A stretch of 64,000 nt of DNA from IMG/VR virus record IMGVR_UViG_3300012983_000034, positions 45,935 through 109,934 of that record. One strand, given 5' to 3'. Below, piece by piece: positions 16,467 through 63,908 of this stretch. Every line of letters begins with the position of its first letter. Position 1 is the stretch's first letter. This DNA is from a virus (Duplodnaviria; Caudoviricetes). The position numbers and the translations under genes were made by a program. The notes below the pieces were generated by a model, which saw only the letters and a program-made list of their open reading frames with translations, did not search any database and was not told the origin of the DNA.

Positions 16467-16487
16467 CTACTTAAAATATGGATTTTA

Positions 16488-16563
16488 TGGCTGCCCCTAT
16501 TGGATTCGAACCAATGATGCAGGAGTCAAAGTCCTGTGCCTTAACCAGCTTGGCGAAGGGGCA
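16488..16563 (-). tRNA. tRNA-Gln(TTG)
   Basis: Cloverleaf; CAGGA CT TTG AC TCCTG; encoded CCA. Confidence 0.93.
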
Positions 16564-16568
16564 ATATA

Positions 16569-16643
16569 TGGTGACGCATACGAGAATCGAACTCGTGTTA
16601 CCGCCTTGAAGGGGCGGTGTCTTAACCGCTTGACCAATGCGCC
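16569..16643 (-). tRNA. tRNA-Glu(TTC), atypical C33
   Basis: CCGCC CC TTC AA GGCGG; encoded CCA. Confidence 0.88.
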
Positions 16644-16647
16644 ATAT

Positions 16648-16724
16648 TGGTATGCCTGAGAGGATTCGAACCTCCGACCCATTGATTAAAAGTCAATTGC
16701 TCTGACCAACTGAGCTACAAGCAC
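16648..16724 (-). tRNA. tRNA-Lys(TTT)
   Basis: ATTGA CT TTT AA TCAAT; encoded CCA. Confidence 0.93.
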
Positions 16725-16728
16725 ATAT

Positions 16729-16825
16729 TGGTGCAAGGCATTTCCTCCTTGCCAGAGAGCTTTTCATCTCTTATATATCCCCAAAAATATATAGCCTTTT
16801 GAAACGAGGATGCGCCCAAGTGGGC
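16729..16825 (-). ncRNA. CCA-terminated structured element inside the tRNA array (not a cloverleaf)
   Basis: Ends GCAAGG-AGGAAATG-CCTTGC-ACCA; occupies a tRNA-sized slot. Confidence 0.35.
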
Positions 16826-16902
16826 TGGTCTGGACAACAGGATTTGAACCTGCGGCATCTACATCCCAAATGTAGCGCTCTACCAAACTGAGCTATGTCC
16901 AG
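16826..16902 (-). tRNA. tRNA-Pro(TGG)
   Basis: CTACA TT TGG GA TGTAG; encoded CCA. Confidence 0.93.
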
Positions 16903-16905
16903 ATG

Positions 16906-16981
16906 TGGAGCTAGATAAGGGACTCGAACCCTTAACATCTTGATTACAAATCAAGCCCTCTACCAATTGAGATAATCTAGC
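16906..16981 (-). tRNA. tRNA-Thr(TGT)
   Basis: CTTGA TT TGT AA TCAAG; encoded CCA. Confidence 0.92.
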
Positions 16982-16985
16982 ATAT

Positions 16986-17079
16986 TGGCGCAGAGGGTGG
17001 GATTCGAACCCACGTGCCAGCTCATCACTGACAAACTGTTTTCAAGACAGCCTCGTTATGACCGCTTCGATACCTCTGC
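16986..17079 (-). tRNA. tRNA-Ser(TGA)
   Basis: CTGT CT TGA AA ACAG, long variable arm, G73, CCA. Confidence 0.92.
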
Positions 17080-17117
17080 ATAGTAAGTGAGTATTTGCCC
17101 TCACTAACGGCATTTAA

Positions 17118-17243
17118 TTAGCCTTTGAGCTTTCTAATTCTTCGTTCGAGCTTACGAACGATTCTACCATTCTCTCTACCTCTCTCCTTGAGAAGAGCAA
17201 TTCTACACTCACACTTCAAAATTTCAAGTTCAACTGCACTCAT
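17118..17243 (-). CDS. 41-aa Arg/Lys-rich protein within the tRNA operon
   Basis: AAAGGAG RBS; MSAVELEILKCECRIALLKERGRENGRIVRKLERRIRKLKG. Confidence 0.65.
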   Translation of the reverse strand: MSAVELEILKCECRIALLKERGRENGRIVRKLERRIRKLKG

Positions 17244-18310: not shown

Positions 18311-18337
18311 AGTTTATTTCCTTATAAAATTATCTTT

Positions 18338-18568
18338 TTAAATGCTAAGTGACAATGATTTCTTTTCGCCACACTTAAAACAAGTATAATAATTAATAAC
18401 ATCGTTCGATGTAACGGTGCTTCCAGTTAGCTCCCATTCGTGTTCGCATTCTTTCTGTTTCTCATTTTCTTCTTTTTCTTGAATATAAATTTCTAACAAG
18501 ACTGCTTCACACATCCTATCGTATTTGTCGCACCAATTACACGGCAATCTATACTTACAATCTTTCAT
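18338..18568 (-). CDS. Cys-rich hypothetical protein
   Basis: Bounded by TAAAA-N6-TTTTA sites; GAGGT RBS. Confidence 0.7.
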   Translation of the reverse strand: MKDCKYRLPCNWCDKYDRMCEAVLLEIYIQEKEENEKQKECEHEWELTGSTVTSNDVINYYTCFKCGEKKSLSLSI

Positions 18569-25072: not shown

Positions 25073-27316
25073 TCAATTTTTTAAAAATTTTTGCATAAAT
25101 GTATGGCGTGTGAGGTTCTCCTTCTTCTTAACCGCCTGATTCACACTTTGCAAACTACCTAAATGATACAACTTTTCTTTCATACGGGTTAAACCAACAT
25201 ACAGTAAATTTGAATTTAACATAAAGATATGTGACTGGGGAGAACATAAAATTACCGTTTTAAATCCGCCGCCCTGTGATTTATGAATGCTTATTGCATA
25301 TCCAAGCTTTACCATATTCATATCATTTCTATAATACTTAACACGAACACCATTAAAGTTTGCGATTATATAAGTATTATATATTTCTTCAATAATCGCA
25401 GTTTCGCCGTTAGCCACAAATGCTGTTTGAGGTTCATCATCAAAGCCCCAACCCACATCCTTTTCGTCTTTTACTAATTCTGCGTTGTAATTATTAACGG
25501 TCTGAAGAATCAAGTCGCCTTGATAATAAGTTGTTTCGCCAACCTTCATATTAATTTCACTTCCGTAGTTTGGATTAGCAACTCTTTGAATCATATTATT
25601 TAAAACGACAGAACCACAATCACCAACATTCTTAGCAGTTAATACCTGAATATCTTCAATACTGTTGCCATTATCCAATAACTTCTTGTACAATGCCACT
25701 ACATTTTTAGGAATTAATTCAGATGCTAAATCAATGAACATATAATCTTGATTATCACCAAATGTAGTTGCCTTAGACTTCATATCCTTTGTTAGATATT
25801 CTTTGCAACATCTTGTGTCGGTTGCAACACGCATCAAACCGCCACTTGAATATCTAAAAATCTTGTTCAATGTTACAGTAGGAATTATGTTTGCTTCCAT
25901 AAAGTCGTGAAGCAAATTGCCACACGATACGGATGGCAACTGTGCATTATCGCCAATCATAAGTAATTTAGTGTGCCTAAAATCAATTGCGTCAAGTAAC
26001 TTCTTAAACAACCAAATATCAACCATTGAAAATTCATCTACAATCACAATGTCACAATTAAGAGGTTGCTCCTCATTATATGTCCAAGTGTTAGGAGGAA
26101 TATAACCCAATCCTCTATGTATGGTTGAAGCAGGTTCATTAGTGTTCTCGTGTAATACCTTGGCAGCTCTACCAGTTGGACTCATTAACCTAAACGACTT
26201 ATTGTTATCTTTTAACATATTAATGATACCTTGTGTCGAAGCAGTCTTTCCTGCCCCTGCAAATCCATTAAGAATAGCAATATTGTTTCTACATACAACA
26301 TCTAGGATTTGCATTTGTTCATCGGACAATTCAAACTCCCCTACTTTCTTGTACTTATGAGTATCAAATTCCCATATATTATTTGAGCAATTTAAATTAT
26401 TGATAATTGTGTCAGCAATATATCTTTCAGTTTCATAAGTTTTACGAAGAGCAACAGTCATATCCTCTTTATTATAATAAATGTTATCGTCCTTAATAAC
26501 ATTAACAAAATGTTCAATACACGACGGAACAAGCTTTAAACATTGTTGTCTAAGGTCTGCAAGATTCATATTAGTGTGTCCTTCGTTTTCATTCTCTTCT
26601 AAGAGATATAGCATACAAGATAAACATCTATCTGGCGAAGTCTTAACATCATATTCAAAATTAATAATGTTTTCTTTCTGCAATTGAAGGATGATAGAAT
26701 CTGCCGTTTTGAAACCAATTCTACTTATTCTTGTTAATGCCGTATATGGCTGAGACTTTATTTTTTCTTTAAGTTTGTCAATCGAAGAATATTCATCATA
26801 AATCTTTTTGATAATACTCATAGACAAAACATTTTTAAATTCGATTACTAAATCCATAAGTGCAAAATTCGTTACTATCTTATCCTTAATAACCGCAAAT
26901 GTTTTTTCGCCTATTCCTTTTAGCTTAGACAGGTCTATATCGCCCAAATTATTGTCTTTAACTCTTTGAATAATGTCGGGATAATGTTCTACTAAAACCT
27001 TAGCCTGATTATATGTTAAGATTTCAGAAAGAAATAGAAATGTGCCTTCAGTAGTTGTAGGTATGTCACGCTTAATATTGATTACGTGATAACTTGTGCC
27101 ATACTTATTCACTTGTTCTTCGGCTGTAATTTCATATTCAACTCCAAGCGTAAGGTCGCTTAATTCGCCAAGGATGCTTACGTTGCCATATTTATTCTGC
27201 TTAATATCAGGATAATCTTTTTTATTTACATCGACAGCGTATATCTTATAATCTGGCGTGTCATAAGTACACCTAATAATTACCCCTTTAAATTTAAATT
27301 GTTTTATTTCACTCAT
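25073..27316 (-). CDS. recD2: RecD2-like SF1B helicase
   Basis: GFAGAGKT, VDEFSM, GDNAQL, YAISIHKSQG. Confidence 0.92.
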   Translation of the reverse strand: MSEIKQFKFKGVIIRCTYDTPDYKIYAVDVNKKDYPDIKQNKYGNVSILGELSDLTLGVEYEITAEEQVNKYGTSYHVINIKRDIPTTTEGTFLFLSEILTYNQAKVLVEHYPDIIQRVKDNNLGDIDLSKLKGIGEKTFAVIKDKIVTNFALMDLVIEFKNVLSMSIIKKIYDEYSSIDKLKEKIKSQPYTALTRISRIGFKTADSIILQLQKENIINFEYDVKTSPDRCLSCMLYLLEENENEGHTNMNLADLRQQCLKLVPSCIEHFVNVIKDDNIYYNKEDMTVALRKTYETERYIADTIINNLNCSNNIWEFDTHKYKKVGEFELSDEQMQILDVVCRNNIAILNGFAGAGKTASTQGIINMLKDNNKSFRLMSPTGRAAKVLHENTNEPASTIHRGLGYIPPNTWTYNEEQPLNCDIVIVDEFSMVDIWLFKKLLDAIDFRHTKLLMIGDNAQLPSVSCGNLLHDFMEANIIPTVTLNKIFRYSSGGLMRVATDTRCCKEYLTKDMKSKATTFGDNQDYMFIDLASELIPKNVVALYKKLLDNGNSIEDIQVLTAKNVGDCGSVVLNNMIQRVANPNYGSEINMKVGETTYYQGDLILQTVNNYNAELVKDEKDVGWGFDDEPQTAFVANGETAIIEEIYNTYIIANFNGVRVKYYRNDMNMVKLGYAISIHKSQGGGFKTVILCSPQSHIFMLNSNLLYVGLTRMKEKLYHLGSLQSVNQAVKKKENLTRHTFMQKFLKN

Positions 27317-51152: not shown

Positions 51153-51175
51153 ATTTACCTCATAAAATTAAGTTT

Positions 51176-51478: not shown

Positions 51479-51504
51479 AACTTACACCTCTTAAAATATA
51501 ATTT

Positions 51505-52042: not shown

Positions 52043-52068
52043 ATGCTCACCTTAAAAGTATATTTTTA

Positions 52069-52257
52069 TCACTTTGTATTTTGGACAGTTCCAAACATTT
52101 TTTCAAAATAATCTTCTTGGCTTTTAAAGCGATATAACGCCTCTAGTGCATCAGCGACTCTTTCACACATCTGTCCATTGTGCTGAGTAGTATATCGCTT
52201 TTGCAAAGACTCAAAGTGTTTAATTGTTTTGTTTATATCATTCATATTACTCACCAC
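52069..52257 (-). CDS. Hypothetical protein
   Basis: Between repeat sites. Confidence 0.6.
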   Translation of the reverse strand: MVSNMNDINKTIKHFESLQKRYTTQHNGQMCERVADALEALYRFKSQEDYFEKMFGTVQNTK

Positions 52258-52271
52258 TTAAAACTTCATTT

Positions 52272-52502
52272 TTATTCACCTAAAATTTCTTTTAAACAAG
52301 CATTATAACCATAAGCCCATTCATCCATAAATACATCCACTTTGTCTGGAACTGATTTCAGAGGGCACCAATCTGGTTTGGTAGTATTATCGAAAATTGC
52401 AAATCTTGTTCTTTCACAAAAATTGGCTTTTGCACCAAGAACATAGCACATACAGTTTTTGCAACTATCTGGCATATCAATTACTAAAATTGCTTTACTC
52501 AT
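52272..52502 (-). CDS. Hypothetical phage protein
   Basis: MSKAILVIDMPDSC..PDWCPL..GYNACL.EI motif. Confidence 0.75.
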   Translation of the reverse strand: MSKAILVIDMPDSCKNCMCYVLGAKANFCERTRFAIFDNTTKPDWCPLKSVPDKVDVFMDEWAYGYNACLKEILGE

Positions 52503-52876
52503 AGTTTTACCTCTTCTTCCTCCATCTTAATTGCAAACTTATCAAAGAAATCCCTTTTCCACTTAGGCAACAACAAGGCTTTTTTGCTCAACTCTTTTTC
52601 ATATGCCAACCATAATGATGGACTCTCTTTCTTGATATAATAAGAAGAATCTCTATCACATTCATCTACTCTACCACAAATTGTACAAACTTTTGTGGGA
52701 GTTTTAAATTCTTCCACTCTGGGCTTACCAGTCTTAAAATCTGTTGTGTGCCAATATGTGTAAAGAAGTACAGTTTCATAAATATGCTTATGTTTTGAGC
52801 GAGGCAAACCTTTGTTCTTTGATTTCTTTTTATGTTTAGTTTCTACCTCTTCATAGCACACATTTTTATCATTCAT
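52499..52876 (-). CDS. Hypothetical protein
   Basis: KHKHIYE..CTICG. Confidence 0.7.
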   Translation of the reverse strand: MNDKNVCYEEVETKHKKKSKNKGLPRSKHKHIYETVLLYTYWHTTDFKTGKPRVEEFKTPTKVCTICGRVDECDRDSSYYIKKESPSLWLAYEKELSKKALLLPKWKRDFFDKFAIKMEEEEVKL

Positions 52877-52899
52877 ATTATTACCTCACTTATATGCTG

Positions 52900-53124
52900 T
52901 CATTTTGCATATTTCATTAACATTGCAATGTCACCCTTTTGAAGCTGCAACTTTTTAATATTTTCATCTATTCTCGCTTCTTCTTTTTGCAGTGCCTTTA
53001 ACATACAAGCATAATCAGCTTTGGCGTTGTAAACATCGCTCAACACTTGATTAGTGTAATTTGAATTATTCCATAAAGATATTTTTTCTTTTAATTTTTC
53101 TTCATCGATTATAAGATATCCCAT
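52900..53124 (-). CDS. Hypothetical protein
   Basis: GAGGT RBS. Confidence 0.65.
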   Translation of the reverse strand: MGYLIIDEEKLKEKISLWNNSNYTNQVLSDVYNAKADYACMLKALQKEEARIDENIKKLQLQKGDIAMLMKYAK

Positions 53125-53148
53125 ATTTTTTACCTCTTAAAACTCTTT

Positions 53149-53394
53149 TTAGTCCCTCTTAGGTTCTAACCTTGGAATTTCTACACTTAAATTTGCGTCG
53201 CAATATCTCTGTCTGTGCATATCTCCTCTTAAATATGAGTCGGAGTCATTAAACACCACACAGTCAATTGTGATACTTCCGTCCATTTCTCTTGTAGCAT
53301 TAGTAAACACACATTGATTAAATCTTGCTTTATCTTCATCGCACAGTCTATCCATAATGTCTTCTGGCGTAATATAAACTTTTAATCCATACAT
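53149..53394 (-). CDS. Hypothetical protein
   Basis: Between repeat sites. Confidence 0.65.
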   Translation of the reverse strand: MYGLKVYITPEDIMDRLCDEDKARFNQCVFTNATREMDGSITIDCVVFNDSDSYLRGDMHRQRYCDANLSVEIPRLEPKRD

Positions 53395-53420
53395 AATCCT
53401 TACCTCTTAAAACTCTATTT

Positions 53421-53648
53421 TTATTCTATCATCCACTTTCGTTTTGCTTCATTTACTCCATAACAAGAAGGACACACAAACGAATCACATGAACAAATAC
53501 AATTAGGAGACAAAACCGAACCATCAGAATTTTTGATTTCAAATGTCTTATTTCTAATATTGATATCACATTCTGAATATTTCAAAACAGCACCACAATA
53601 TTCACACTGTTGAATGTAACACTCAGGTGCTTCTTTTAATATCTGCAT
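53421..53648 (-). CDS. Zinc-ribbon hypothetical protein
   Basis: CEYCG..CPSC. Confidence 0.65.
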   Translation of the reverse strand: MQILKEAPECYIQQCEYCGAVLKYSECDINIRNKTFEIKNSDGSVLSPNCICSCDSFVCPSCYGVNEAKRKWMIE

Positions 53649-53677
53649 AATTTAATACCTCTTAAAATTTTATTTTT

Positions 53678-53824
53678 ATGTGGGTAGGGATTTGCACCCT
53701 ACATGACTCAGCAACTCATCGGATGCCACGACCATTTAAAGTGACTAGTGTTTAAAAGGTTAGGTTGCACTCATTATCGGCTTCGTTGTCTCGTGAATCT
53801 GTCTACCTATTCCAGCACCACATA
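53678..53824 (-). ncRNA. tRNA-like RNA with an enlarged anticodon arm
   Basis: Acceptor TATGTGG/CCACATA, D arm CTG-GAATAGGTAGA-CAG, T arm GTAGGG-TGCAAAT-CCCTAC, ~95-nt structured insert. Confidence 0.7.
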
Positions 53825-53835
53825 AAATTCGTATT

Positions 53836-53991
53836 TTATTTACTCTCTGTTTCTCTGCCACTTGGAATCCTACCATTTTCAACTTCATTGAAAAGATAAT
53901 CTAAATCTTCTCCAAATGTAGGATTTCCAGCCTCATCGCACAATCCACTATGATGGCTATATCGAGGATATTCATCTTTTATTGTATTCAT
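53836..53991 (-). CDS. Small hypothetical protein
   Basis: Between repeat sites; ATG 53991. Confidence 0.55.
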   Translation of the reverse strand: MNTIKDEYPRYSHHSGLCDEAGNPTFGEDLDYLFNEVENGRIPSGRETESK

Positions 53992-54019
53992 CGTTTTCAC
54001 CCCACATAAAATACGCTTT

Positions 54020-54217
54020 TTATGAATGAAATCCAAGCTTATATTCTTCATCGAAATCAAGCTCTATATCATTTTCATAAATAGAAAAAACACAATTACC
54101 CATTTCGTAGCAATTCCACCAGTGAATCTTGTACCAGCTTAAAACATCTTCAATATCATCACTTTCATATGTTGCAACCATACTATAATATTGCCATATT
54201 TCAATTTTATATTTCAT
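54020..54217 (-). CDS. Hypothetical protein
   Basis: GAGGT RBS before ATG 54217. Confidence 0.6.
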   Translation of the reverse strand: MKYKIEIWQYYSMVATYESDDIEDVLSWYKIHWWNCYEMGNCVFSIYENDIELDFDEEYKLGFHS

Positions 54218-54219
54218 AC

Positions 54220-54588
54220 TTACCTCACAAATACTACTTTGCATTTTCTTTGACCACAACCACAAAAATGTGAAGGTAAATATACCATAGGTTCTTCTCC
54301 TACAACATCTTCACATTCGCAAATAACACAATCATCTTTGAAATATTTTTCAGGTGATTTTGTTTTATCTATTGGTCTGCCGTGTTTACAATCCTTGCAT
54401 CTTACAACCTCAACTACATCTGGAGTATTTTCAATCACATCGGCAGTAGGTTGGTCTAATACCATTTTAATAAAATGTCTATGCTCGGCATTATGTGTTT
54501 GCGAAGCAATTCCATTGTTATGCTCATTATTTGCTCTGCTTCGTTCTATGTCTTGTATGAGAATATTTGCGTTAATGTATCTGTTCAT
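54220..54588 (-). CDS. Hypothetical phage protein
   Basis: PTADV..VVEVVRCKDCKH motif. Confidence 0.75.
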   Translation of the reverse strand: MNRYINANILIQDIERSRANNEHNNGIASQTHNAEHRHFIKMVLDQPTADVIENTPDVVEVVRCKDCKHGRPIDKTKSPEKYFKDDCVICECEDVVGEEPMVYLPSHFCGCGQRKCKVVFVR

Positions 54589-54611
54589 ATTTACCTCTTA
54601 AAATGCACATT

Positions 54612-54920
54612 TTAAATACTCATTTTGACACCACAATGACCACAGTAATTCTGGTAGTTATCATAGTCCCATACATTCTTTTGTGTCTTGCCACATTGGT
54701 CACAAGTTCCGCTTCCGTCTTTATTCAACTTCCACCTTCCTGTTTTTTCTTTAAGGTCTGCATAACCAGTAAGACAGTAATAAACGCCCATAGCAGCATC
54801 ACCTTGAATAGTGTTTAACACTCTGACTTTATTTTCTTCTTTTCTCGCAACCATTAAAGTCGGAACATCAGGCGGACAACTATCATAACTAATAATCAAG
54901 CAATCTTCCATATCTATCAC
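54612..54920 (-). CDS. Zinc-ribbon hypothetical protein
   Basis: CDQCG..NYCGHCG. Confidence 0.7.
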   Translation of the reverse strand: MIDMEDCLIISYDSCPPDVPTLMVARKEENKVRVLNTIQGDAAMGVYYCLTGYADLKEKTGRWKLNKDGSGTCDQCGKTQKNVWDYDNYQNYCGHCGVKMSI

Positions 54921-54940
54921 CTTAAATCGCTATTTTATTA

Positions 54941-55177
54941 TTAATAAATTTTTTCACCAATCTTATAAATTTCTTCGATTTTATCATCATAAGAATAAGT
55001 GTTGTCGTTTATGTATTCTATGAGTTCTTCTGTTGACATTTTATTACTGTCTACTAATATTTTAAAAATCTTTTTATCAACACAACCAACATATTCTACA
55101 TAAGCAATTAAAAAATCATTAATATTTTCGTAGTCATCTACAAAATGACCACCATTAACTAACAAAGCAATCATCAT
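54941..55177 (-). CDS. Hypothetical protein
   Basis: GAGGT RBS. Confidence 0.65.
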   Translation of the reverse strand: MMIALLVNGGHFVDDYENINDFLIAYVEYVGCVDKKIFKILVDSNKMSTEELIEYINDNTYSYDDKIEEIYKIGEKIY

Positions 55178-55194
55178 TATACCTCTCTGTTTTA

Positions 55195-55458
55195 TTATTC
55201 ATCTTCCCACAAAACACTTTCCCATTCTCTGGGTGACAACCAATACGGATAAGGTTCGCCAAATATTTGGTCATCAGAGTTATATTCGATAGCAACAATG
55301 CCAAGTCCCTTTTCATCATATCTTACTGTCATAATATAGTTATTATTGAGCAGCACCATAATCGCATCTCTAATAGCATTTTCAAACTCTTCTTGAGACT
55401 TGTATTCGTCCTTACAAATTACAATTTCATTTACTTTGTTCATATTATTCTTCTCCAT
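55195..55458 (-). CDS. Hypothetical protein
   Basis: Coupled ORF. Confidence 0.65.
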   Translation of the reverse strand: MEKNNMNKVNEIVICKDEYKSQEEFENAIRDAIMVLLNNNYIMTVRYDEKGLGIVAIEYNSDDQIFGEPYPYWLSPREWESVLWEDE

Positions 55459-55681
55459 TTATTTCATCGATAATTTTTCTCATTACGGTTGGATAACCAA
55501 TAATCATTTTCATTTCGTCTATGATATAAATTGAATTACTTGGAACAAGTTTATAACCATATCGTTTTAAAAACTTTTTGTCTATACGCTTTCTTTTATG
55601 TTTGCGAACTCTTATCTTATCGCAACAAGACTCTGATTCAACAAGTCTATAATCGTTATAGAAAAATTGTTTTTCTAACAT
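55445..55681 (-). CDS. Hypothetical protein
   Basis: KHKRKRIDKKFLKRYG motif shared with 50173..50664. Confidence 0.65.
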   Translation of the reverse strand: MLEKQFFYNDYRLVESESCCDKIRVRKHKRKRIDKKFLKRYGYKLVPSNSIYIIDEMKMIIGYPTVMRKIIDEINGEE

Positions 55682-55841
55682 CGGTTATTCCTTTCTTATT
55701 TTAAAAAATTCTTTATAATATTCATACAATTACAAAATCCAATTGCATAAGGGTCATGTTCACCATATTGCACTTTTAAATGTCTATATTTTTCTTCGGC
55801 AACCTTTAACAGTTCTTTGACATCTTTGTTTTCTTCCATAT

Positions 55842-56081
55842 TCATACTCCAATTTCAAAAGCATAATCATTAGGAGAAAATGAATCTTGCTTTTCTTTTA
55901 CAATTCTAATTATAAAATTATCAGCACCACCGCAAAAGTCTTCGCACGAATACCAACTCTTTCCATTGTATACTTCGATTTCTGATATATTTTTCATCTC
56001 ATCATCACACACAATGTTTAATACGGGTGAAACTCCAAATACTTCTTTACCATCTTTGAACCATACTGCTTCAAGTTTCAT
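55842..56081 (-). CDS. Hypothetical protein
   Basis: GGAGG RBS. Confidence 0.65.
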   Translation of the reverse strand: MKLEAVWFKDGKEVFGVSPVLNIVCDDEMKNISEIEVYNGKSWYSCEDFCGGADNFIIRIVKEKQDSFSPNDYAFEIGV

Positions 56082-56367
56082 AGTTGTCGTCCTCCGATTC
56101 GCTTTCTAACCACATCTTAATAATCTCTTCGTTGCTAGGTGCATAATCCATATCTTGAAAATATTTACATTTCTTATGCGCTTCACACCAAGCGCATTCT
56201 ACCTCATGGTCAAATGGTTCTACAATAGCAGATACTGTTTCGCATTTTCTACAATAATTTCTATCAAACCATCGAATCCAAGGATAATCAGCAAGCGTAT
56301 CCTTTTTGCTAATCCATTCTACAAGTTCATCGATACTCTTTGTTTTAAAGCTTTCAAATACTGTCAT
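56071..56367 (-). CDS. Hypothetical protein
   Basis: RBS-led ORF. Confidence 0.7.
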   Translation of the reverse strand: MTVFESFKTKSIDELVEWISKKDTLADYPWIRWFDRNYCRKCETVSAIVEPFDHEVECAWCEAHKKCKYFQDMDYAPSNEEIIKMWLESESEDDNYET

Positions 56368-56394
56368 ATTATTACCCCTTTTAAAATAAACTTT

Positions 56395-56595
56395 TTAAGT
56401 GTTAAATTTTCTGCCACACTTAGGACAGAACTTAATATTTATAATATCTTCTGAAAACCATACACGAGTATAATCATCATAATATCTAACTCGCAGCATA
56501 CCTTGTCTATTCAAAGCAATTTCCATACCACTGTATTCTTGGGTGTCATTAAATACTACAAAGTCATTGTCTTCGTGTTCGCAATATTTACACAT
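56395..56595 (-). CDS. Zinc-ribbon hypothetical protein
   Basis: MCKYCE..IKFCPKCGRK. Confidence 0.65.
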   Translation of the reverse strand: MCKYCEHEDNDFVVFNDTQEYSGMEIALNRQGMLRVRYYDDYTRVWFSEDIINIKFCPKCGRKFNT

Positions 56596-56620
56596 ATCTT
56601 TACCTCTTAAAATATTCTTT

Positions 56621-56914
56621 TTAATTGTTAATTTCATCGAATGTGTTTGTTTCTGGATTATATCTATATGGTAATCCATTTGGTGCATAATACGGAGTAT
56701 AAGCACACCATCCAGCATATGTAGTATTTTCAATGTATACAATTCTTGTTACAGAATCATAAACTAAATTACCACCAATATCTACAAAATTGCCAAATTG
56801 ATTTGACGATATGTTTTCACTATTTGACACATTTACTTGAACCGACTCTGAACAAGCCGTCAAAGAAAATATAAGAATACAACTAAATATAATTGCTATT
56901 AATTTCTTTTTCAT
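56621..56914 (-). CDS. Lipoprotein
   Basis: Signal peptide with LTAC lipobox. Confidence 0.7.
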   Translation of the reverse strand: MKKKLIAIIFSCILIFSLTACSESVQVNVSNSENISSNQFGNFVDIGGNLVYDSVTRIVYIENTTYAGWCAYTPYYAPNGLPYRYNPETNTFDEINN

Positions 56915-56940
56915 ATCTTTTACCTCATAAAATCTCGATT

Positions 56941-57135
56941 TTAACACATAGGAGGTTCAGGCAAGGACATCCAATGGGTAATAAATTCATCTTCGGTTCT
57001 ACCCCAATATCCATAAGCATCTTCCCATTCATCATTGCCCATATAAGTATAAACGCTAATCAAGTCGCCTCTATATACAAGAACCGTTTCGTCCTTAGTG
57101 GGCATCTGTTCCTCTACACTAATCCAATTTTCCAT
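56941..57135 (-). CDS. DUF551 family protein
   Basis: WISVEEQMP..VLVY..THWMSLPEPP. Confidence 0.85.
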   Translation of the reverse strand: MENWISVEEQMPTKDETVLVYRGDLISVYTYMGNDEWEDAYGYWGRTEDEFITHWMSLPEPPMC

Positions 57136-57247
57136 AATAAATACCTCTCTTGATTTATTTTCTTGATATAATTATAATCTTTTAATATGTACTATGCTTG
57201 AATAATTTGTAAACATATTGTAAACGCTTACAAATTATTTTATAATT

Positions 57248-57454
57248 TTATTTTTTAATATATTTTTCCTCTAATGTCGTAGGGCTAGCACCCTTTCCAA
57301 GCCGTTCAAAGCAATCGTCAATAACTTTATATATTGTAAACATTTTATTTGTTTGATTCTGCGTTAACTTATATATGTTTCCATTCAAACATTTATAAGT
57401 TACCATACCAACTTCATTATCTGGTATCTTTTTCAAAAGTTTATTTACAACCAT
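57248..57454 (-). CDS. Hypothetical protein
   Basis: RBS-led ORF. Confidence 0.6.
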   Translation of the reverse strand: MVVNKLLKKIPDNEVGMVTYKCLNGNIYKLTQNQTNKMFTIYKVIDDCFERLGKGASPTTLEEKYIKK

Positions 57455-57491
57455 ATATATTTACCTTATTCCAAAGCAAGAGCCAATCACG

Positions 57492-57815
57492 CTATTTTGC
57501 CTCGTCCTTCTGTCTTAAAGTTTTAAGCAATTCAATACCTTTATCCAATAACTCATTCCAGCTTAATTCGGACTTTAATGCATTCGTAGTATTAACTCTT
57601 GCATCAATGTCTCCAATAACTTTAAGCAGTTCTTCTACGATTTGTTCATCAGTCATTTCATTATCTTTTTCAAAAAGAGGTGAGTTGCTTTTTACAGGCA
57701 TACTTGAAATACGGTTTTCATCAAGAAAGCAAGATTTGCCTTTTTTAATTTTGGTGGATTTATGACGAGGAATAAAGACCTCGTTATCATTTTTTAAAAA
57801 ATCATAAATAATCAT
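57492..57815 (-). CDS. Hypothetical protein
   Basis: RBS-led ORF. Confidence 0.6.
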   Translation of the reverse strand: MIIYDFLKNDNEVFIPRHKSTKIKKGKSCFLDENRISSMPVKSNSPLFEKDNEMTDEQIVEELLKVIGDIDARVNTTNALKSELSWNELLDKGIELLKTLRQKDEAK

Positions 57816-58033
57816 ATTTATTTACCTTCCTTTTCTGCCAACATAAAACTGCCAAGAGATATCATAGATAAGCCTATACCTACTAAAAAATTTATTGCTA
57901 CAAAACCATATATAGCGGCATAAAGAGAGAAGCCGCTAAAAAAATAGAATATTTTTCCATCATTCCAAATTTTCATATTTAATATTTAACCTCCCTAATA
58001 TATTTACCAACGGACAAACAAAAAGTACTGATT

Positions 58034-58288
58034 TTATAAAGCAAAAAGCTTATAAAGCCAATAAAAAATAGCAACAGGCGGAATAAGTAAATGCATAAAA
58101 ATAACTTTAAGCCAAACACCAAACCAATTTAACTCACTATTGTAGTATATTTCAAAAGGATTAAAGTCATAATCAAATTCGTAAGGGCTGCTACTGGTCA
58201 TCCACACTCCAAAGCCAACAATATTAATAACTAAATAAATTAAAATAAAAGTATATAATACTGTCATATTTATTTCACTTCCCTCCAC
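58034..58288 (-). CDS. Membrane protein
   Basis: Two TM segments. Confidence 0.65.
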   Translation of the reverse strand: MEGSEINMTVLYTFILIYLVINIVGFGVWMTSSSPYEFDYDFNPFEIYYNSELNWFGVWLKVIFMHLLIPPVAIFYWLYKLFAL

Positions 58289-58294
58289 AGTTCT

Positions 58295-58597
58295 TTATCC
58301 ATAATAACCTCCATCAGGTGCATCTCTTTTATAATTTGGACATTTTCCTTCGTAGTCTTTATCTTTGCTACATACTACCTCATGAATACATTTATGGCAG
58401 CGAGATAGATTGGTAGAAGTTAATTTTTTAGCTAATTCCATTATTTTTTCATTTAATCTTTTAATTTCTGTAGCCGCATCATAACTGTCGTGGTTCCAGC
58501 GATAAGGGCATCCTTCAAACCATTCGGTACCAATGCCCTCACATCTTTGAGTACCACAATTATGACAATATTTTTCTATAAAATATTTATCATTCAT
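58295..58597 (-). CDS. Cys-rich hypothetical protein
   Basis: YCHNCGTQRC..YKRDAPDGGYYG. Confidence 0.7.
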   Translation of the reverse strand: MNDKYFIEKYCHNCGTQRCEGIGTEWFEGCPYRWNHDSYDAATEIKRLNEKIMELAKKLTSTNLSRCHKCIHEVVCSKDKDYEGKCPNYKRDAPDGGYYG

Positions 58598-58977
58598 CTT
58601 ACTTCCCTCCAGCCATTCCGCTCGATAATCCGTCTCATATTCTCCACACCTACTGGGTTTTGCGAGTGAATGCGAATAGGATAGTTGCGACCAAGCTCCT
58701 CAAGCCAGTCGAGGAGCTTGATATAATCCCCACCATCACAAGCATAATCACCAGCATCGTGGTCGATGTCAATGAGTTCAATAGTGTTATAGTAAATAGC
58801 TCTACGAATTTGCTCCACATAATAAGATAAATTACATTCAAAAGCTCTGTTATACTTTTCGCTCAAATTCTTGATACGCTCTTCGTGCTCAACGATTGAC
58901 TCTTTTGCTTCATTGACACTCTTACACCAAATATATCCATCTGGTGCTTCACGAAGGTCATCTATCCAAAGTTTCAT
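58594..58977 (-). CDS. Cyclic-phosphate-processing receiver domain protein
   Basis: LWIDDLR.AP, DIDHDAG, IHSQNPVG motifs. Confidence 0.75.
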   Translation of the reverse strand: MKLWIDDLREAPDGYIWCKSVNEAKESIVEHEERIKNLSEKYNRAFECNLSYYVEQIRRAIYYNTIELIDIDHDAGDYACDGGDYIKLLDWLEELGRNYPIRIHSQNPVGVENMRRIIERNGWREVR

Positions 58978-59159
58978 TATTATTCTTCCTCTTCAATTTC
59001 TCTTTCCGTAAACTCTTCACCATTCATAATTGCCGAAGCAATACTGTCAATAAAATCAAAATCATCACAATACATCAATTCTTCAATAATGTTGTTTGCC
59101 ATTCTCATAATTTCTGCCTTATTCATAATTAAAATCCTCCACTTAAAATCCTTCTTTTA

Positions 59160-59723
59160 TTAGTTATTAACTTTGTTATAAAATTCAATTGCATTTGCCA
59201 TATACTTGTCTCTAAACTCTTCCTTAAACACATTTAATGCTTTAATCATAGAGTCATAGTCTTTATTGAATACGGCAACAAACACTGGACAAAGACTTTC
59301 CCAATCACTAAACAAGCAAAAGTATTCTCCGTTTCTTTCAAAGGAACTTATATATCCAATTTCGTGAAATAATTTAAGAATAGATGAACCGCTCAACATT
59401 AAATTTCCATTCAACATTTCTTCTTTGATGTAATCCAAATCTTCGTTTCTTTCTTTAATGGTCTTGGCAATCTCTTCGCACTTTTTAATTTCATCTTCTC
59501 CGCCTTCAGAAACAAATTCCAAATAGTCTTCATCCCACCAAGCAGAGCTGCCACCAGTTTCTTTATCTAAGACACTATAACCACCGTAACATTCCCCCTT
59601 GCCATATCTTTCGCCATATGAATATTCAATTACACCAAGTCTGTCTGTATCGTATGAGTCTGGCTCTCCCCAAAATCCACATTTAAACTTAACAATATTA
59701 CCTCTCTTAAACATTTCAACCAC
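59160..59723 (-). CDS. Hypothetical protein
   Basis: Between repeat sites. Confidence 0.7.
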   Translation of the reverse strand: MVEMFKRGNIVKFKCGFWGEPDSYDTDRLGVIEYSYGERYGKGECYGGYSVLDKETGGSSAWWDEDYLEFVSEGGEDEIKKCEEIAKTIKERNEDLDYIKEEMLNGNLMLSGSSILKLFHEIGYISSFERNGEYFCLFSDWESLCPVFVAVFNKDYDSMIKALNVFKEEFRDKYMANAIEFYNKVNN

Positions 59724-60308
59724 TTAAAACCTTTCTTTTATTTGTTTCATAGCAAGTTTAAAAGCCAACATATACAAATCAAGAATGCCTGTTTCTTTCT
59801 TACCAATGTCATAAGCCCACTCCCAAGCATCACTATCTAATTCGCTTAGAACTTCATATCCATCTCTGCTGATTCCAGTTGCGTCAGAAAAGTCTGACAA
59901 TATATCGTCTAATATAGATTCTAATCTTTCTTCTTCATCTTTATAATAATATAAATCCGTACCATACAGCAGACCATATTCTTCTATGTATTTTGCCAAA
60001 TCTTTTCTTGCCAAGTCATCGTCGTAATAATAGATTGGTCTGTTATGACAATCTATTTTTTCTTCAAAATAACCCGTGTTATTCACAAAATCAGTAAACT
60101 TATCAAATGTCATATTACAATAATTAGACGCAATAAGTTCACCCAAATCACCAGATATATGTAAGCGATAGTAATCTTCTTCAAACAAAAATCGAATACG
60201 GTAATGGGATGATTCTGGATTTTTGAAATCAAGTATTTTTATATTTCCATAATCGGTGAAAGTTGCTATATGATTTTTGAAATTTTCCATTTGTCTTTCT
60301 AAATTCAT
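59724..60308 (-). CDS. Hypothetical phage protein
   Basis: LHISGDLG..YFEEK motif. Confidence 0.75.
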   Translation of the reverse strand: MNLERQMENFKNHIATFTDYGNIKILDFKNPESSHYRIRFLFEEDYYRLHISGDLGELIASNYCNMTFDKFTDFVNNTGYFEEKIDCHNRPIYYYDDDLARKDLAKYIEEYGLLYGTDLYYYKDEEERLESILDDILSDFSDATGISRDGYEVLSELDSDAWEWAYDIGKKETGILDLYMLAFKLAMKQIKERF

Positions 60309-60325
60309 AACTGCTTAATGCCTTT

Positions 60326-60547
60326 CTACACAATAATTCGTCCGTGCTCTTCTTCGAGTTCTCGACCACAATAAGGACAAAACTTAATACCAATATCTGC
60401 ACCAGACGGAACTTCTAAATGCCACAATCCGTTTTCATCAATCTGTATACAAGTGTCAAAGACTCTTCCAACAGGATAGCCGTCTATGATATGTTCTGGT
60501 AAGTCTTCATACTCTGTACAAAATCTACATCCAATGTTTCTTTCCAT
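60326..60547 (-). CDS. Zinc-ribbon hypothetical protein
   Basis: CRFC..IKFCPYCGR. Confidence 0.7.
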   Translation of the reverse strand: MERNIGCRFCTEYEDLPEHIIDGYPVGRVFDTCIQIDENGLWHLEVPSGADIGIKFCPYCGRELEEEHGRIIV

Positions 60548-60558
60548 TATCTTCCTCT

Positions 60559-61191
60559 TTAATCATTATAACTATCCCAGTCTTCTACTCTTTTATCGTT
60601 TTCTGGGTCATTATAATATTTATAAGCAAGTTTAGCTGGCATATCAGAGTCTTTTTGGTTATCCCACATAAGATATTCACACCAATTAGGCTTCTTGTCT
60701 TTATTATTCCAAGACCAAGATGGACTTTCAAACATCTCTGCATAAACATTGTGGTATCTGTCATTTTCACAAATAACACGATTACCTTTATCGTCGCTGT
60801 CGATATTTACGAGTACACTGCGTATATCAACTCGTTTTGCCAACCTACACAGCCACTTGATAAACTCTTTATAAGTATCATCGAATAACCTATCTCTAAA
60901 ATTACCTTCGACCACAAGAATATATGTGTCCTGTGTGCGCAACCACCCTCTTCTACGGCTGCGGTCTCCATAATCATCTTTCAAATTATTAGTAACCATC
61001 CCAAATTCATCACAAGAACTGCTTGAATTGTGCCCTGCTTTTTGAACAATATGCACATTCATATCTCTTTCCGAACCTGTTACAATAGGCAAATGCTCCA
61101 ATACAGTTTCAAGAATATATCTTTTTTCTGCCTGAGTTCTACCCATAGGAGTTACTTCAATCGTACCTGTTATATGCGTCCAATAACTCAT
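60559..61191 (-). CDS. Hypothetical protein
   Basis: GAGGTGG RBS. Confidence 0.75.
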   Translation of the reverse strand: MSYWTHITGTIEVTPMGRTQAEKRYILETVLEHLPIVTGSERDMNVHIVQKAGHNSSSSCDEFGMVTNNLKDDYGDRSRRRGWLRTQDTYILVVEGNFRDRLFDDTYKEFIKWLCRLAKRVDIRSVLVNIDSDDKGNRVICENDRYHNVYAEMFESPSWSWNNKDKKPNWCEYLMWDNQKDSDMPAKLAYKYYNDPENDKRVEDWDSYND

Positions 61192-61227
61192 ATTCCACCT
61201 CTAAATCTTCCACTTAAAAACCTTATT

Positions 61228-61935
61228 TTATGCGCCCAAGCCTTTCAGTTCCGCTACAAGTTCTGCCAACTTAGGATTATCAGAATACTTCTGAGCCATT
61301 TCCTCATAATATTCTACAGACTTTCTCTTATTAATTTCTTCTTCCAATTCTTTTTCAATAGCAGCCTTCTTCTTTTCAAGTTCTGCAAGTCTAAGCTTTT
61401 CTTCTTCTCTTGCAATATGTCCTCTCATATTTACAACGCCAACAACCTCTGCGGTAATTCTTCTTCCCTTGTTTGCCTCAATATCATAATATTCTTCAAC
61501 AGACATAATCTTCTTAAGAGTGCCAAGCAAACGATTGTTTTTTCCATTTGCATTAACCACTACCAATGCGCCGTCAATACGAATGTTCTCTTTGCAAAAA
61601 TAATCAAACTCTTCATCGTATAATGCGAAAGCATAGTCTTTCTTGTTATAATCCTCCAGCAAATTTACAATTGCAATATTCTTAAATCCTTCCATTTTAA
61701 TATCCTCACTTTCATCTTTAATAATTTTTACTTCGCTTTTGCTAAACCAATAAATACCATAAGTACTTGCCTTATTTCTCTTTCCTTCTATAAGAACACC
61801 AACATCATCGCTACTTATTCTTTCTACAATTCCGTGCTTGCCGATAACATTGTCTCTTATATAAGTAATTTTATCTGTGCTTTTAATTAAAACACATTTA
61901 CCCCTATAATGGTTATTCATATAATCTCTATCCAT
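61228..61935 (-). CDS. Hypothetical protein with C-terminal coiled coil
   Basis: Between repeat sites. Confidence 0.75.
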   Translation of the reverse strand: MDRDYMNNHYRGKCVLIKSTDKITYIRDNVIGKHGIVERISSDDVGVLIEGKRNKASTYGIYWFSKSEVKIIKDESEDIKMEGFKNIAIVNLLEDYNKKDYAFALYDEEFDYFCKENIRIDGALVVVNANGKNNRLLGTLKKIMSVEEYYDIEANKGRRITAEVVGVVNMRGHIAREEEKLRLAELEKKKAAIEKELEEEINKRKSVEYYEEMAQKYSDNPKLAELVAELKGLGA

Positions 61936-61969
61936 ATAACCTTACCTCTTAAAATTCTTGTTTTATATG

Positions 61970-62239
61970 TTACACTTCTTCAAAAAAGAAATCTCCAAGT
62001 TCTTGTTCGTTACCATTATCATCAATAAAAGTAATGTCTTCACAATCGCCAAACCCTTCGATTGCTACAACCTCATAAATTTTTCCTCTTGTAACTCCTT
62101 TTACTTGTTCTACATTTGGAGTTCCATTGAAAAATTTATCCAACCATTCGGCATTTTCTTTTACTCTTAAATATTTTCCACTCACTCTTCTTTTACCCGT
62201 ATACGGATTGGCATCAATATTTTCTCTTAATACACTCAT
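61970..62239 (-). CDS. Hypothetical protein
   Basis: GGAGG RBS. Confidence 0.65.
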   Translation of the reverse strand: MSVLRENIDANPYTGKRRVSGKYLRVKENAEWLDKFFNGTPNVEQVKGVTRGKIYEVVAIEGFGDCEDITFIDDNGNEQELGDFFFEEV

Positions 62240-62251
62240 AATAACCTCCAT

Positions 62252-62440
62252 TTAAAAATCTTCTTTTAATCGGCTCAATCGTTCTGCAAAATAACCAACC
62301 ATAAACAAGATTGACACAACGAACAGAACCCAAGCTGCCCTTTTATAATCTCCAGAAAATAAATCACGCATTGCAAACCCCAAACAAAAAGGACTAAATA
62401 CACGATTTATAACGCTCATTATATTTTTAAAAACTTCCAT
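62252..62440 (-). CDS. Small membrane protein
   Basis: Hydrophobic segments; between repeat sites. Confidence 0.6.
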   Translation of the reverse strand: MEVFKNIMSVINRVFSPFCLGFAMRDLFSGDYKRAAWVLFVVSILFMVGYFAERLSRLKEDF

Positions 62441-62471
62441 ATTTCCTACCTCTTAAAACTCTGCTTTTATG

Positions 62472-63146
62472 TTACTCTAAAACAACAATATCAACGCTGT
62501 CTCTTTCTTTGTTGGCTATAAATCTATGATAGCCATCAATCAGTCTATATTTATTTCCGTCCTTAACACATACAGCAATCGGCAATTCCCTATTTTGATA
62601 TTCTTCAATTACATTGTTTTCAAGTTTGATGAAATATTCCGTTTGAGGAAGTCGAATGTTATTGGGGGACACTTCGATGATAACTGCGGAAGTTGCGGAT
62701 TCTACACAATCAATAAGATAATTATATTCCAGCTTTAAACAATACTGAATCTTTTCAAGGACAGTATTTAATTCAAGTACTTCGTAGTAAGCATTAAAAA
62801 TCTTCTCTTCGTTCTCAAAGTAGACACCATACACTTCTTCACCATAATATCCGCCGCCTGTTTCAACCTCATAGAAATCCTTGTCATAGATTTTGAATGC
62901 ATAACAGATTCTATCAAAACAATACTCATCAATATAAGAGCCTGTTCTACTATGCTTACGATACAATTCATCTACCACATCACGAACATTAACCTTGTCT
63001 ACCCAAGCGTGTTCGATTGTGGTGCATCTGCAATAGTCATCATTTTCATAGGCATTACAATGACATTCACTTCTCTCATAATCGTAATCTACAATCCATT
63101 GCAGATTGGTCTTTTTAAAAATACATTTCTCCATAATATCCTCCAC
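62472..63146 (-). CDS. Protein with C-terminal ParB/Srx-like domain
   Basis: PQTE..PIAV....YRLIDGYHR. Confidence 0.7.
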   Translation of the reverse strand: MEDIMEKCIFKKTNLQWIVDYDYERSECHCNAYENDDYCRCTTIEHAWVDKVNVRDVVDELYRKHSRTGSYIDEYCFDRICYAFKIYDKDFYEVETGGGYYGEEVYGVYFENEEKIFNAYYEVLELNTVLEKIQYCLKLEYNYLIDCVESATSAVIIEVSPNNIRLPQTEYFIKLENNVIEEYQNRELPIAVCVKDGNKYRLIDGYHRFIANKERDSVDIVVLE

Positions 63147-63171
63147 TTAAAACTTTACTTTTATGTACTTA

Positions 63172-63372
63172 TTATTCCAACCACGGCTCTTCATTCCACA
63201 GATTCTCTCCGCAATACGGACAAAATTTCCAACCAACAATATCATCTCTTTCTTCTGTGTGTTTGTCTCCATAAATTATTTCTATCGCACCCAAAGAATT
63301 TCCACAATGGTCACATACATACTCGTAATATATATGTTCATTGGTAACAGAACTGTATCCGAATTTCACCAT
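63172..63372 (-). CDS. Zinc-ribbon hypothetical protein
   Basis: CDHCG..KFCPYCG. Confidence 0.65.
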   Translation of the reverse strand: MVKFGYSSVTNEHIYYEYVCDHCGNSLGAIEIIYGDKHTEERDDIVGWKFCPYCGENLWNEEPWLE

Positions 63373-63384
63373 ATCATATACCTC

Positions 63385-63666
63385 TTAAAATCTGTTTCTT
63401 ACAAAATCTCTTTGCTCTTTATTCAGTTCAAAACAAACTTCTATTGTATTAACATTGTCATAGTCAACCGTAAACGGCAAACCGCAAATAGTTCCAATGG
63501 TTGTTATATCACGCTCTGGATTAAACCACTGTAATCTAGCATCTCTGTTAAGGACATACAATATTCTCTCGCCCAAGATAACCTTGTTAGGCTTTATATG
63601 ATATAGCATTTCCATATGATAGTATTGTGTTTCAATGTTATTAATAATTTCATCAATATAATCCAT
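63385..63666 (-). CDS. Hypothetical protein
   Basis: GAGGT RBS. Confidence 0.65.
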   Translation of the reverse strand: MDYIDEIINNIETQYYHMEMLYHIKPNKVILGERILYVLNRDARLQWFNPERDITTIGTICGLPFTVDYDNVNTIEVCFELNKEQRDFVRNRF

Positions 63667-63692
63667 ACTTCTTACCTCTTAAAATCTGTCTT

Positions 63693-63908
63693 TTATTCTA
63701 TATCTACCAGTCTTCCACAATTAGGACAATAGTTAGGTGTACGGTTATCTTTTAGAACAGTAGAATCACCAAACATATAACGACTGTTCCAAGTTTCAAT
63801 TCTAATCAGCAAATCACAATCGGGACAGAAAAACTTTTTTCTATACCATCCTTCTTCTCTTGCTCTTTTTGTGTTTTTAAAATCTTCCGTATCAATTTCG
63901 ATTCTCAT
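63693..63908 (-). CDS. Zinc-ribbon hypothetical protein
   Basis: CPDC..NYCPNCG. Confidence 0.65.
   Translation of the reverse strand: MRIEIDTEDFKNTKRAREEGWYRKKFFCPDCDLLIRIETWNSRYMFGDSTVLKDNRTPNYCPNCGRLVDIE

Follow-up and report, generated by a model that had tools for sequence, protein, structure and literature searches.

Many accessory genes of a tailed phage represented by the IMG/VR record IMGVR_UViG_3300012983_000034 (here G0) are separated by copies of a 16-bp palindromic site, TAAAA-N6-TTTTA. The DNA analysed, hereafter the window, is the final 64 kb of this 109,934-bp contig, whose CheckV completeness is 78%. All copies of the site share two 5-bp arms, and the 6-bp core between them, which is particular to each junction, would serve as an address: among relatives the same cores recur in nearly the same order while the genes on both sides are replaced. 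On this comparative basis we propose tentatively, with somewhat less than even confidence, that the sites are fixed, position-coded crossover joints for a protein-directed, site-specific exchange.

The site has strict arms, a fixed spacer and a variable core

Exact matches to TAAAA-N6-TTTTA number 41 in the window, 39 of them within 16472-63695 and the others at 1818 and 10469, and 44 in the whole record. A preliminary description of this stretch had claimed at least 35 copies and one to two by chance; dinucleotide shuffles of the window gave a mean of 1.17 sites (standard deviation 0.93, maximum 3). In a scan of spacings 0-14 only N6 was enriched, with 0-4 copies at each of the spacings 0-5 and 7-14, which is the sharp peak that the description had expected. 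Its example cores were also correct as read on the + strand. The shuffles and the spacing scan rule out chance or composition as the source of the motif.

About 35 copies lie on the coding (-) strand, where they conform to W-TAAAA-N5R-TTTTA-AGAGGT, and the distance from the site to the start codon is 8-17 nt, 13 being the commonest value. This is the layout given in the preliminary description (TAAAA-N6-TTTTA-AGAGGT-N-ATG). Across 39 sites the preceding base is A or T in every case, and the six bases that follow are A30 G32 A23 G33 G35 T25, so that the right arm abuts the Shine-Dalgarno sequence (SD) AGAGGT. The core carries 0.01-0.14 bits per position, except for its last base, which is mostly A (26/39). 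The left arm had often been seen to supply or overlap the upstream stop codon; of 32 junctions that could be scored, 19 use its TAA as that stop.

One-mismatch copies at spacing 6 number 15, inside the range of the other spacings (14-76), and only three of them abut a Shine-Dalgarno sequence. Because one-mismatch copies are at background level, the arms are all-or-nothing. This stringency suggests specific protein recognition rather than a merely homologous linker. The hairpin that a site could form (5-bp stem, 6-nt loop) has a folding energy of +1.48 kcal/mol as RNA and +0.17 as DNA, which speaks against an unaided hairpin of either kind, and in context the arms seldom pair (median pairing probability 0.08). 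Since the hairpin is unstable, an unaided RNA stem is unlikely and recognition as double-stranded DNA is more likely, as had been suggested from the strict spacer.

Cores keep their order while the genes around them change

G001, a complete 153-kb relative (DnaE 82% identical), holds 57 sites; G001 and G002 are 99.998% identical, and their comparison is hence uninformative. Fifteen G0 cores recur exactly in G001 with their order unchanged, where we estimate that about one to two matches would arise by chance. Away from these shared cores the identity of G0 and G001 drops to background within ~10 nt in either direction, and the two genomes differ widely in how far apart successive shared sites lie.

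A pattern search with the site plus AGAGGTAA recovered 77 stretches on ~55 IMG/VR contigs. Their 359 oriented sites carry just 114 distinct cores. Both flanks were unrelated in 762 of 967 same-core pairs among these loci, and the shared cores stood in the same order in 409 pairs and in a different order in 22. An independent set of six contigs from metagenome-assembled genomes (MAGs; DnaE 86-94%) was then compared together with G0, giving 554 concordant pairs and two discordant ones. Upstream of dnaE the MAG contigs carry the series TGGTGA, TTACGA, TTGCAG, TTGAGG, T/GCTGAA, GTTTAA, GATTAG, GATTCA, TATCGT, C/TTAACA, CAGGGA, CAAAGA, TAAAGG. G0 and the locus L095 have ten addresses in common over ~7 kb of G0 (~9 kb of L095), and the intervening slots, nine in number, all failed to align, tblastx included. 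The integron-like shuffling that the preliminary description had envisaged does not fit these results, since the genes on either side of a core are replaced while the core retains its place in a conserved series.

In G0, and likewise in G001, every oriented site has a core of its own. Adjacent cores resemble each other more than they do after shuffling: their mean Hamming distance is 3.24 in G0 compared to 4.13 in shuffled order (p<2e-4), and 3.68 compared to 4.07 in G001 (p=0.014), with runs of neighbouring cores beginning with G, AT, TT and CA. New slots may originate by local duplication of a joint. A comparison of core with neutral spacer conservation, made at junctions with both flanks conserved, had only two usable pairs. 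The more distant relative G004 (DnaE 55%; L030-L037) has one exact site only, and holds 19 copies of TRAAA-N6-TTTYA at spacing 6 compared to 1-9 at other spacings (e.g. L032:1983 and L033:2218).

A half-site was observed at L105:30-75. It consists of the left arm and five core bases of GTTTAA (TAAAAGTTTA), followed after 8 nt by a complete site with the core GAAAGG. Its left flank is 94% identical to L075, whose GTTTAA site is whole.

Similarity blocks end at sites in G0 relatives and in SPbeta

In several pairs of loci one side is 70-93% identical up to the site and the other side is unrelated. Similarity among relatives stops at sites, and the units that the sites bound (ribosome-binding site, open reading frame (ORF) and stop codon) are exchanged between phages; both had been anticipated in the preliminary description.

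The same motif was found in the laboratory phage SPbeta, which has 34 sites, at spacing 6 only. Its arms are longer, tctaRaTAAAA-N6-TTTTAtYtaga (11-6-11), and its sites lie 10-25 nt from the Shine-Dalgarno sequence rather than adjoining it and are present in late-gene intergenic regions too. When SPbeta was compared with phi3T, Goe13, Goe14 and SPbetaL8, cores and their order were retained and similarity blocks ended within sites. The SPbeta yoqD unit (86073-86907) is 100% identical to Goe13 and Goe14, with unrelated neighbours on both sides; the identity extends from one base before the site GATGCA through five bases after the site GTAAAA. In SPbetaL8 a 2.2-kb gene fills the slot between GATGCA and GTAAAA. 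One seemingly siteless breakpoint proved to lie on a one-mismatch copy whose core is that of the exact site in the relatives.

Among named phages the motif is enriched in SPbeta (34), c-st (31), PBC2 (23), pCD1602_4 (21) and LIBA6276 (19). Conservation of the arms spans Bacillus, Clostridium and gut phages, and in the gut and rumen clade of G0 the right arm is fused to the Shine-Dalgarno sequence. A literature search, outside which the work of Lazarevic et al. 1999 on SPbeta fell, found no published description of the palindromes.

Genome context and catalogue of sites

Genes of the early and replication block occupy the - strand from ~13 kb onward in the window. They encode thymidylate synthase, dUTPase, NrdD, NAD-ligase, RecD2, DnaE, a PD-(D/E)XK nuclease, two HNH/AP2 endonucleases, a Toprim primase, a DnaB-like helicase and an AAA_24 protein, with dozens of small ORFs scattered among them. 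The sites are concentrated in the early and accessory block, and some follow tRNA genes. The preliminary description had placed the copies that it found at junctions in accessory blocks; the copy at 25247 lies inside the recD2 frame, that at 47279 is at the 3' end of an ORF, and those at 1818 and 10469 are in the + strand late and lysogeny part of the window. At the recD2 site (25247-25262) exact arms are present in five relatives, with the cores CGGTAA, CAGTAA or CGGTGA, and this site is probably held by the protein sequence and is not a junction. The exact sites are listed below in window coordinates, with the strand where one was assigned.

1818-1833: exact site, intergenic in the + strand late region; no adjoining SD
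10469-10484: exact site, core TAATAA, upstream of the large serine recombinase gene; core also in G001
16472-16487, - strand: site, core TCCATA, immediately after the 3' end of tRNA-Gln
18325-18340, - strand: junction site, core AGATAA
18579-18594, - strand: junction site, core CTGAGA, follows the dUTPase gene; core also in L126
25247-25262: exact site, core CGGTAA, inside the recD2 coding sequence
30903-30918, - strand: address TAAAGG, common to 10 other sources and all six MAG relatives
31438-31453, - strand: address CAAAGA, common to 9 other sources
31880-31895, - strand: address CAGGGA
32509-32524, - strand: address CTAACA (TTAACA in L124, L125 and L128)
32785-32800, - strand: address TATCGT
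33046-33061, - strand: address GATTCA
33364-33379, - strand: address GTTTAA, common to 11 other sources
33853-33868, - strand: address TCTGAA (GCTGAA at the same place in relatives)
36451-36466, - strand: address TTGAGG
36811-36826, - strand: address TTGCAG
37072-37087, - strand: address TTACGA
37597-37612, - strand: address TGGTGA; similarity blocks to five relatives stop 22-30 nt after the site start
44653-44668, - strand: site, core TAGAAA, upstream of the HNH/AP2 endonuclease gene
47279-47294: exact site at the 3' end of a called ORF; no adjoining SD
49266-49281, - strand: junction site, core ACATAG; SD 30 nt further on
51163-51178, - strand: address ACTTAA, also in G001, L058 and L092
51492-51507, - strand: address ATTATA
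52053-52068, - strand: address ATATAC
52259-52274, - strand: address ATGAAG, 8 other sources
53408-53423, - strand: address ATAGAG, 10 other sources
53663-53678, - strand: address ATAAAA, the most widely shared (21 loci), preceded by a ~145-nt non-coding stretch
53823-53838, - strand: address TACGAA, 16 loci
54007-54022, - strand: address AGCGTA
54599-54614, - strand: junction site, core TGTGCA
56382-56397, - strand: address AGTTTA, also in L095
56608-56623, - strand: address AGAATA, in L044 and L095
56928-56943, - strand: address TCGAGA, in L044 and L095
59144-59159, - strand: address GAAGGA
59725-59740, - strand: address GAAAGG; left flank ~80% identical to L044 up to the site, right flank unrelated
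61215-61230, - strand: address TAAGGT
61950-61965, - strand: junction site, core CAAGAA
62253-62268, - strand: address GAAGAT, 7 other sources
62454-62469, - strand: address GCAGAG
63148-63163, - strand: address GTAAAG
63680-63695, - strand: address GACAGA

The following genes are referred to in the text.

Window 10715-12337, + strand: large serine recombinase
Window 34217-35407, - strand: PD-(D/E)XK nuclease, the sole gene within the 30.9-37.6 kb array retained by all relatives
Window 40974-42089, - strand: AAA_24 (Sak4-type) protein (PF13479, E 2.5e-16), a candidate annealing protein for recombination by homology
Genome 14105-15139, outside the window, late region: Xer-like YomM-type tyrosine recombinase (PF00589)

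The array at 49000-64000 holds ~55 small genes in 15 kb. It contains 81 promoter-like sites compared to 74.7 +/- 9.1 in shuffles, and two terminator-like sites compared to 4.4, none of them on the coding strand. The array looks like a single long transcription unit, and the absence of any excess of promoter-like or terminator-like sites is consistent with the earlier view that the units are promoterless. For 17 of 20 site-flanked genes tested between 30.6 and 63.7 kb there was no PHROG family match. The non-coding stretch of ~145 nt at 53679-53822, between TACGAA and ATAAAA, the two addresses that recur at the most loci, gave no match with ARAGORN and Rfam; seven tRNAs are the only Rfam matches, none of them at 53.5-54.0 kb. 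An HNH/AP2 endonuclease gene lies at 43898-44644, after the site at 44653, and has a homolog at L019:6041-6771. In G003, a 93% relative, the homolog is located between dnaE and recD2, which indicates that the gene is mobile within the replication module.

By DnaE the nearest named phages are Clostridioides phage pCD1602_4 (51%) and large Bacillus siphophages. G0 and SPbeta have the YomM-type recombinase, DnaE, primase and tape measure in common. Closer relatives of G0 are 100-160-kb contigs binned in gut and rumen MAGs with inconsistent taxonomy. The phage-sized relatives L124-L129 carry the MAG labels Clostridia, Lachnospiraceae, Bacilli and even Paludibacteraceae; these cannot all be correct, and the host of the phage is therefore uncertain.

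An Xer-like recombinase is the best candidate enzyme

The preliminary description had called for a search of the rest of the genome for a tyrosine recombinase, and one was found, encoded at genome 14105-15139. The protein carries the RxxE-type Arg, KGxG, HxxR, W and Y. In NCBIfam it matches XerC, XerD and XerA best, over the full length and at 52-55 bits compared to cut-offs of 220-335, and a PDB sequence search with it gave no match. Xer-type sites have 6-bp central regions. We consider this YomM-type protein to be the best candidate enzyme for exchange at the sites. As the sole PF00589 protein of the record it is Xer-like and encoded in the late region; the integron partner implied by the preliminary description was not found, as there is no IntI-type integrase, attI or Pc.

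An exact site at genome 15167-15182 (L001:2149) lies 28 bp after the recombinase gene, within a GC-clamped hairpin that resembles a terminator and has the site as its inner stem and loop. A site also lies ~29 bp after the YomM-like ortholog in G001 and ~400 bp downstream of yomM in SPbeta. A phyletic profile of G0, G001 and SPbeta against G004 revealed no discriminating gene for a site-binding protein; G004 carries the variant motif and is not a clean negative.

How exchange might work, and what else could explain the sites

On the proposed reading, exchange would take place at the sites rather than merely being tolerated there, and the core would have to match between partners. Related phage genomes would meet by co-infection or by infection of a lysogen. 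A dimer, for which the Xer-like YomM-type tyrosine recombinase is the candidate, would recognise the inverted arms in duplex DNA and carry out strand exchange over the matching 6-bp core, which is also how heterospecific lox and FRT sites work. Strand exchange between same-core sites would swap everything to one side in register, and repeated events would replace single slots, each consisting of a ribosome-binding site, one or a few small ORFs and a stop codon, with gene order and reading frames left intact. For a single recombinase to act at many sites without cross-reaction between them, the arms would need to be identical and the cores unique, as they are here. If plain homologous recombination were at work, the repetition of arms and Shine-Dalgarno sequences within one genome would presumably bring nothing but a risk of deletions. 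It is possible, although we give it a little less credence than the general proposal, that SPbeta-like phages have a natural counterpart of recombinase-mediated cassette exchange, in which one Xer-like or other site-specific enzyme acts on dozens of sites. Shared arms and mutually incompatible 6-bp cores would then allow co-infecting relatives to recombine at any numbered joint, in register, and the accessory genome would become a set of swappable slots.

Several observations weigh against this proposal. All of the evidence is comparative. Among flank-similar pairs, the cores beside homologous genes differ in 4 of 13 cases for the left flank and 10 of 27 for the right, so the matching of cores is not an absolute rule. 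The preliminary description had suggested a Tn916-like tolerance of non-matching cores; the cores behave instead as if they must match, apart from the roughly one-third of cases just given. In a 23-kb comparison only 15 of 78 blastn block ends fell at sites, although this exceeds the expected 4.3% by a factor of 4.5. Almost all of the intergenic spacer is taken up by the site, and phage mosaic boundaries generally fall at gene boundaries. Many block ends in the compared stretch of SPbeta are at junctions without sites, at ordinary gene boundaries, so the sites of SPbeta appear to be preferred joints rather than the only ones. The arms measure only 5 bp in the G0 clade, where the right outer flank is the Shine-Dalgarno sequence, and this is short for the binding element of a tyrosine recombinase. 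The link of the recombinase to the sites is weak: G004 has an intact YomM-like gene (353 aa, spanning the terminal repeat) yet only the weaker variant motif, and TR-TP1 has tyrosine recombinases and no enrichment of the motif.

The same joints and the same outcome could arise without a dedicated enzyme if each junction were a short homologous linker for phage annealing-type recombination by a Sak4-like AAA_24 protein, nucleases and a resolvase. What preserves the arms would then be something else, for instance the stop codon, an unrelated binding protein or a U-rich tract ahead of the Shine-Dalgarno sequence. We consider this somewhat less likely than the site-specific reaction; both readings fit the comparative data. 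Between two same-core sites whose flanks are unrelated, the exactly identical stretch has a median length of 22 bp (interquartile range 18-24), compared to 8 bp (95th percentile 14) for different-core sites, so that the core would determine if there is enough identity to use. G0 encodes the AAA_24 protein and the PD-(D/E)XK nuclease, and SPbeta is annotated with a Sak4-like annealing protein (yorG), RecJ-like and other exonucleases and a Holliday junction resolvase; yorG occupies the place in the SPbeta replication module that matches that of the G0 AAA_24 protein, a likeness by position and annotation. Genes beside different cores and the half-site scar of L105 fit sloppy recombination, and there is a precedent in T4-type phages, where promoter-early stem-loops (PeSLs) mediate shuffling by homologous recombination (PMC2839356, PMC4122927). 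Annealing leaves unexplained why the palindromic arms are strictly identical, why the spacing is fixed at 6 nt, why one-mismatch copies are absent above background, and why conservation of the arms extends across Bacillus, Clostridium and gut phages. Non-identical relatives that share one flank of a site usually have the other flank unrelated, despite just 22 bp of identity, and 22 bp is short for efficient homologous recombination. Identical tracts of arm and Shine-Dalgarno sequence inside one genome would, moreover, favour deletions.

A regulatory role, either as an operator for a dimeric phage DNA-binding protein or as an mRNA element bound or cut before each ribosome-binding site, is improbable; the coincidence with mosaic boundaries would in that case be a by-product of selection for intact genes. 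It would suit the fixed distance before the Shine-Dalgarno sequence in the G0 clade, the placement after tRNA genes and at the stop codon, and the concentration in the early and accessory block, and strict arms are suited to a protein-binding site. The spacer of an operator should drift, however, and the cores are instead letter-exact and ordered while flanking genes are replaced. The SPbeta sites, at 10-25 nt from the Shine-Dalgarno sequence and also between late genes, are not part of the ribosome-binding site, and an RNA stem would be unstable if unaided. The known SPbeta operator, the 15-bp SPBRE bound by MrpR at early promoters, is a different sequence: MrpR-bound promoters share ACAAATACAAAWAATATGTATA, which is unrelated to the palindrome. 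Least probable by far, in our estimate, are integron-like cassettes without promoters that a tyrosine recombinase tolerant of non-matching cores would cut out as circles and then insert or rearrange at any site. The units do look promoterless, a tyrosine recombinase is present in the record, some genes stand beside different cores, and PeSL mini-circles show that phages can form such circles (PMC2839356). Against such cassettes speak the almost invariant core order (409:22 and 554:2), the failure of sites to travel with genes (both flanks unrelated in 762/967 same-core pairs), the absence of an IntI-type integrase, of attI/Pc and of attC-like structure, and the lack of any repeated core among the oriented sites of G0 or G001.

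Implications for phage evolution and annotation

If exchange at position-coded joints is confirmed, the long-standing view of phage evolution as module exchange at conserved linkers would gain a physical basis. Such exchange would also explain the 'dedicated loci' of large temperate Firmicutes phages in which counter-defence genes alternate. SPbeta-like phages have one dedicated anti-Gabija locus that holds gad1 or gad2, described without mention of the palindromes (10.1101/2023.05.01.538930), and this locus fits the idea of a slot. For annotation, the sites mark slot boundaries and predict the location of fast-turnover genes whose function is unknown. If a core-matching enzyme exists, it would be a ready-made tool for multi-site cassette exchange. 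The system is open to direct testing in the laboratory phages SPbeta and phi3T.

Comparison with known systems

Two further identities were rejected. The ComK box, AAAA-N5-TTTT, is not the motif found here, which has zero copies at spacing 5. A REP/RAYT system is not indicated, as the record (78% complete) has no match to PF01797 (Y1/HUH transposase).

The PeSLs of T4-type phages are composites of a sigma-70 promoter and a terminator hairpin and are thought to act via homologous recombination (PMC2839356, PMC4122927). Like the sites described here, they are short, recur between genes and cluster where the early genes are small and non-essential, and indels and replacements between relatives are bounded by the elements in both cases. 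The 16-bp site differs in its unstable stem, its exact arms and its position-specific, ordered core. An identity with PeSLs or another promoter-terminator composite is ruled out by the counts of promoter-like sites (81 vs 74.7) and terminator-like sites (2 vs 4.4) and by the stem energy of +1.48 kcal/mol.

Integrons resemble the present arrangement in having promoterless single-gene units between palindromic sites and a tyrosine recombinase in the genome. The attC site, in contrast, is long, imperfect and recognised as a folded single strand, and it moves with its gene while cassette order changes; the phage sites stay while the genes change. The absence of IntI, attI and Pc, the fixed order and sites that do not move with genes rule out an integron.

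Another comparison is with Xer/dif sites and the dif modules of Acinetobacter plasmids. These modules are reportedly bounded by pdif sites with non-identical XerC and XerD half-arms in alternating orientation and depend on the host Xer proteins. The 11-6-11 geometry of SPbeta, the gene modules bounded by sites and a recombinase nearest to XerC/XerD/XerA are shared features, whereas the phage arms are symmetric and the cores position-specific. The sequence of the phage site is, as far as we can judge, also unlike that of B. subtilis dif.

Heterospecific lox and FRT sites are engineered sites of Cre and FLP for recombinase-mediated cassette exchange, with 13-bp arms and an 8-bp spacer. In them, too, two identical arms in inverted orientation enclose a short asymmetric spacer, which varies between sites, and recombination only between equal spacers predicts an ordered, in-register exchange, the pattern seen here. 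The phage sites differ in having 5-bp arms (11 bp in SPbeta), a 6-bp core and dozens of copies per genome, and their recombinase is only a candidate. In broader terms, the linker hypothesis attributed to Botstein (1980) is said to hold that related phages exchange functional modules at conserved short intergenic sequences. That hypothesis named no such linkers, whereas those described here are explicit, palindromic and individually coded.

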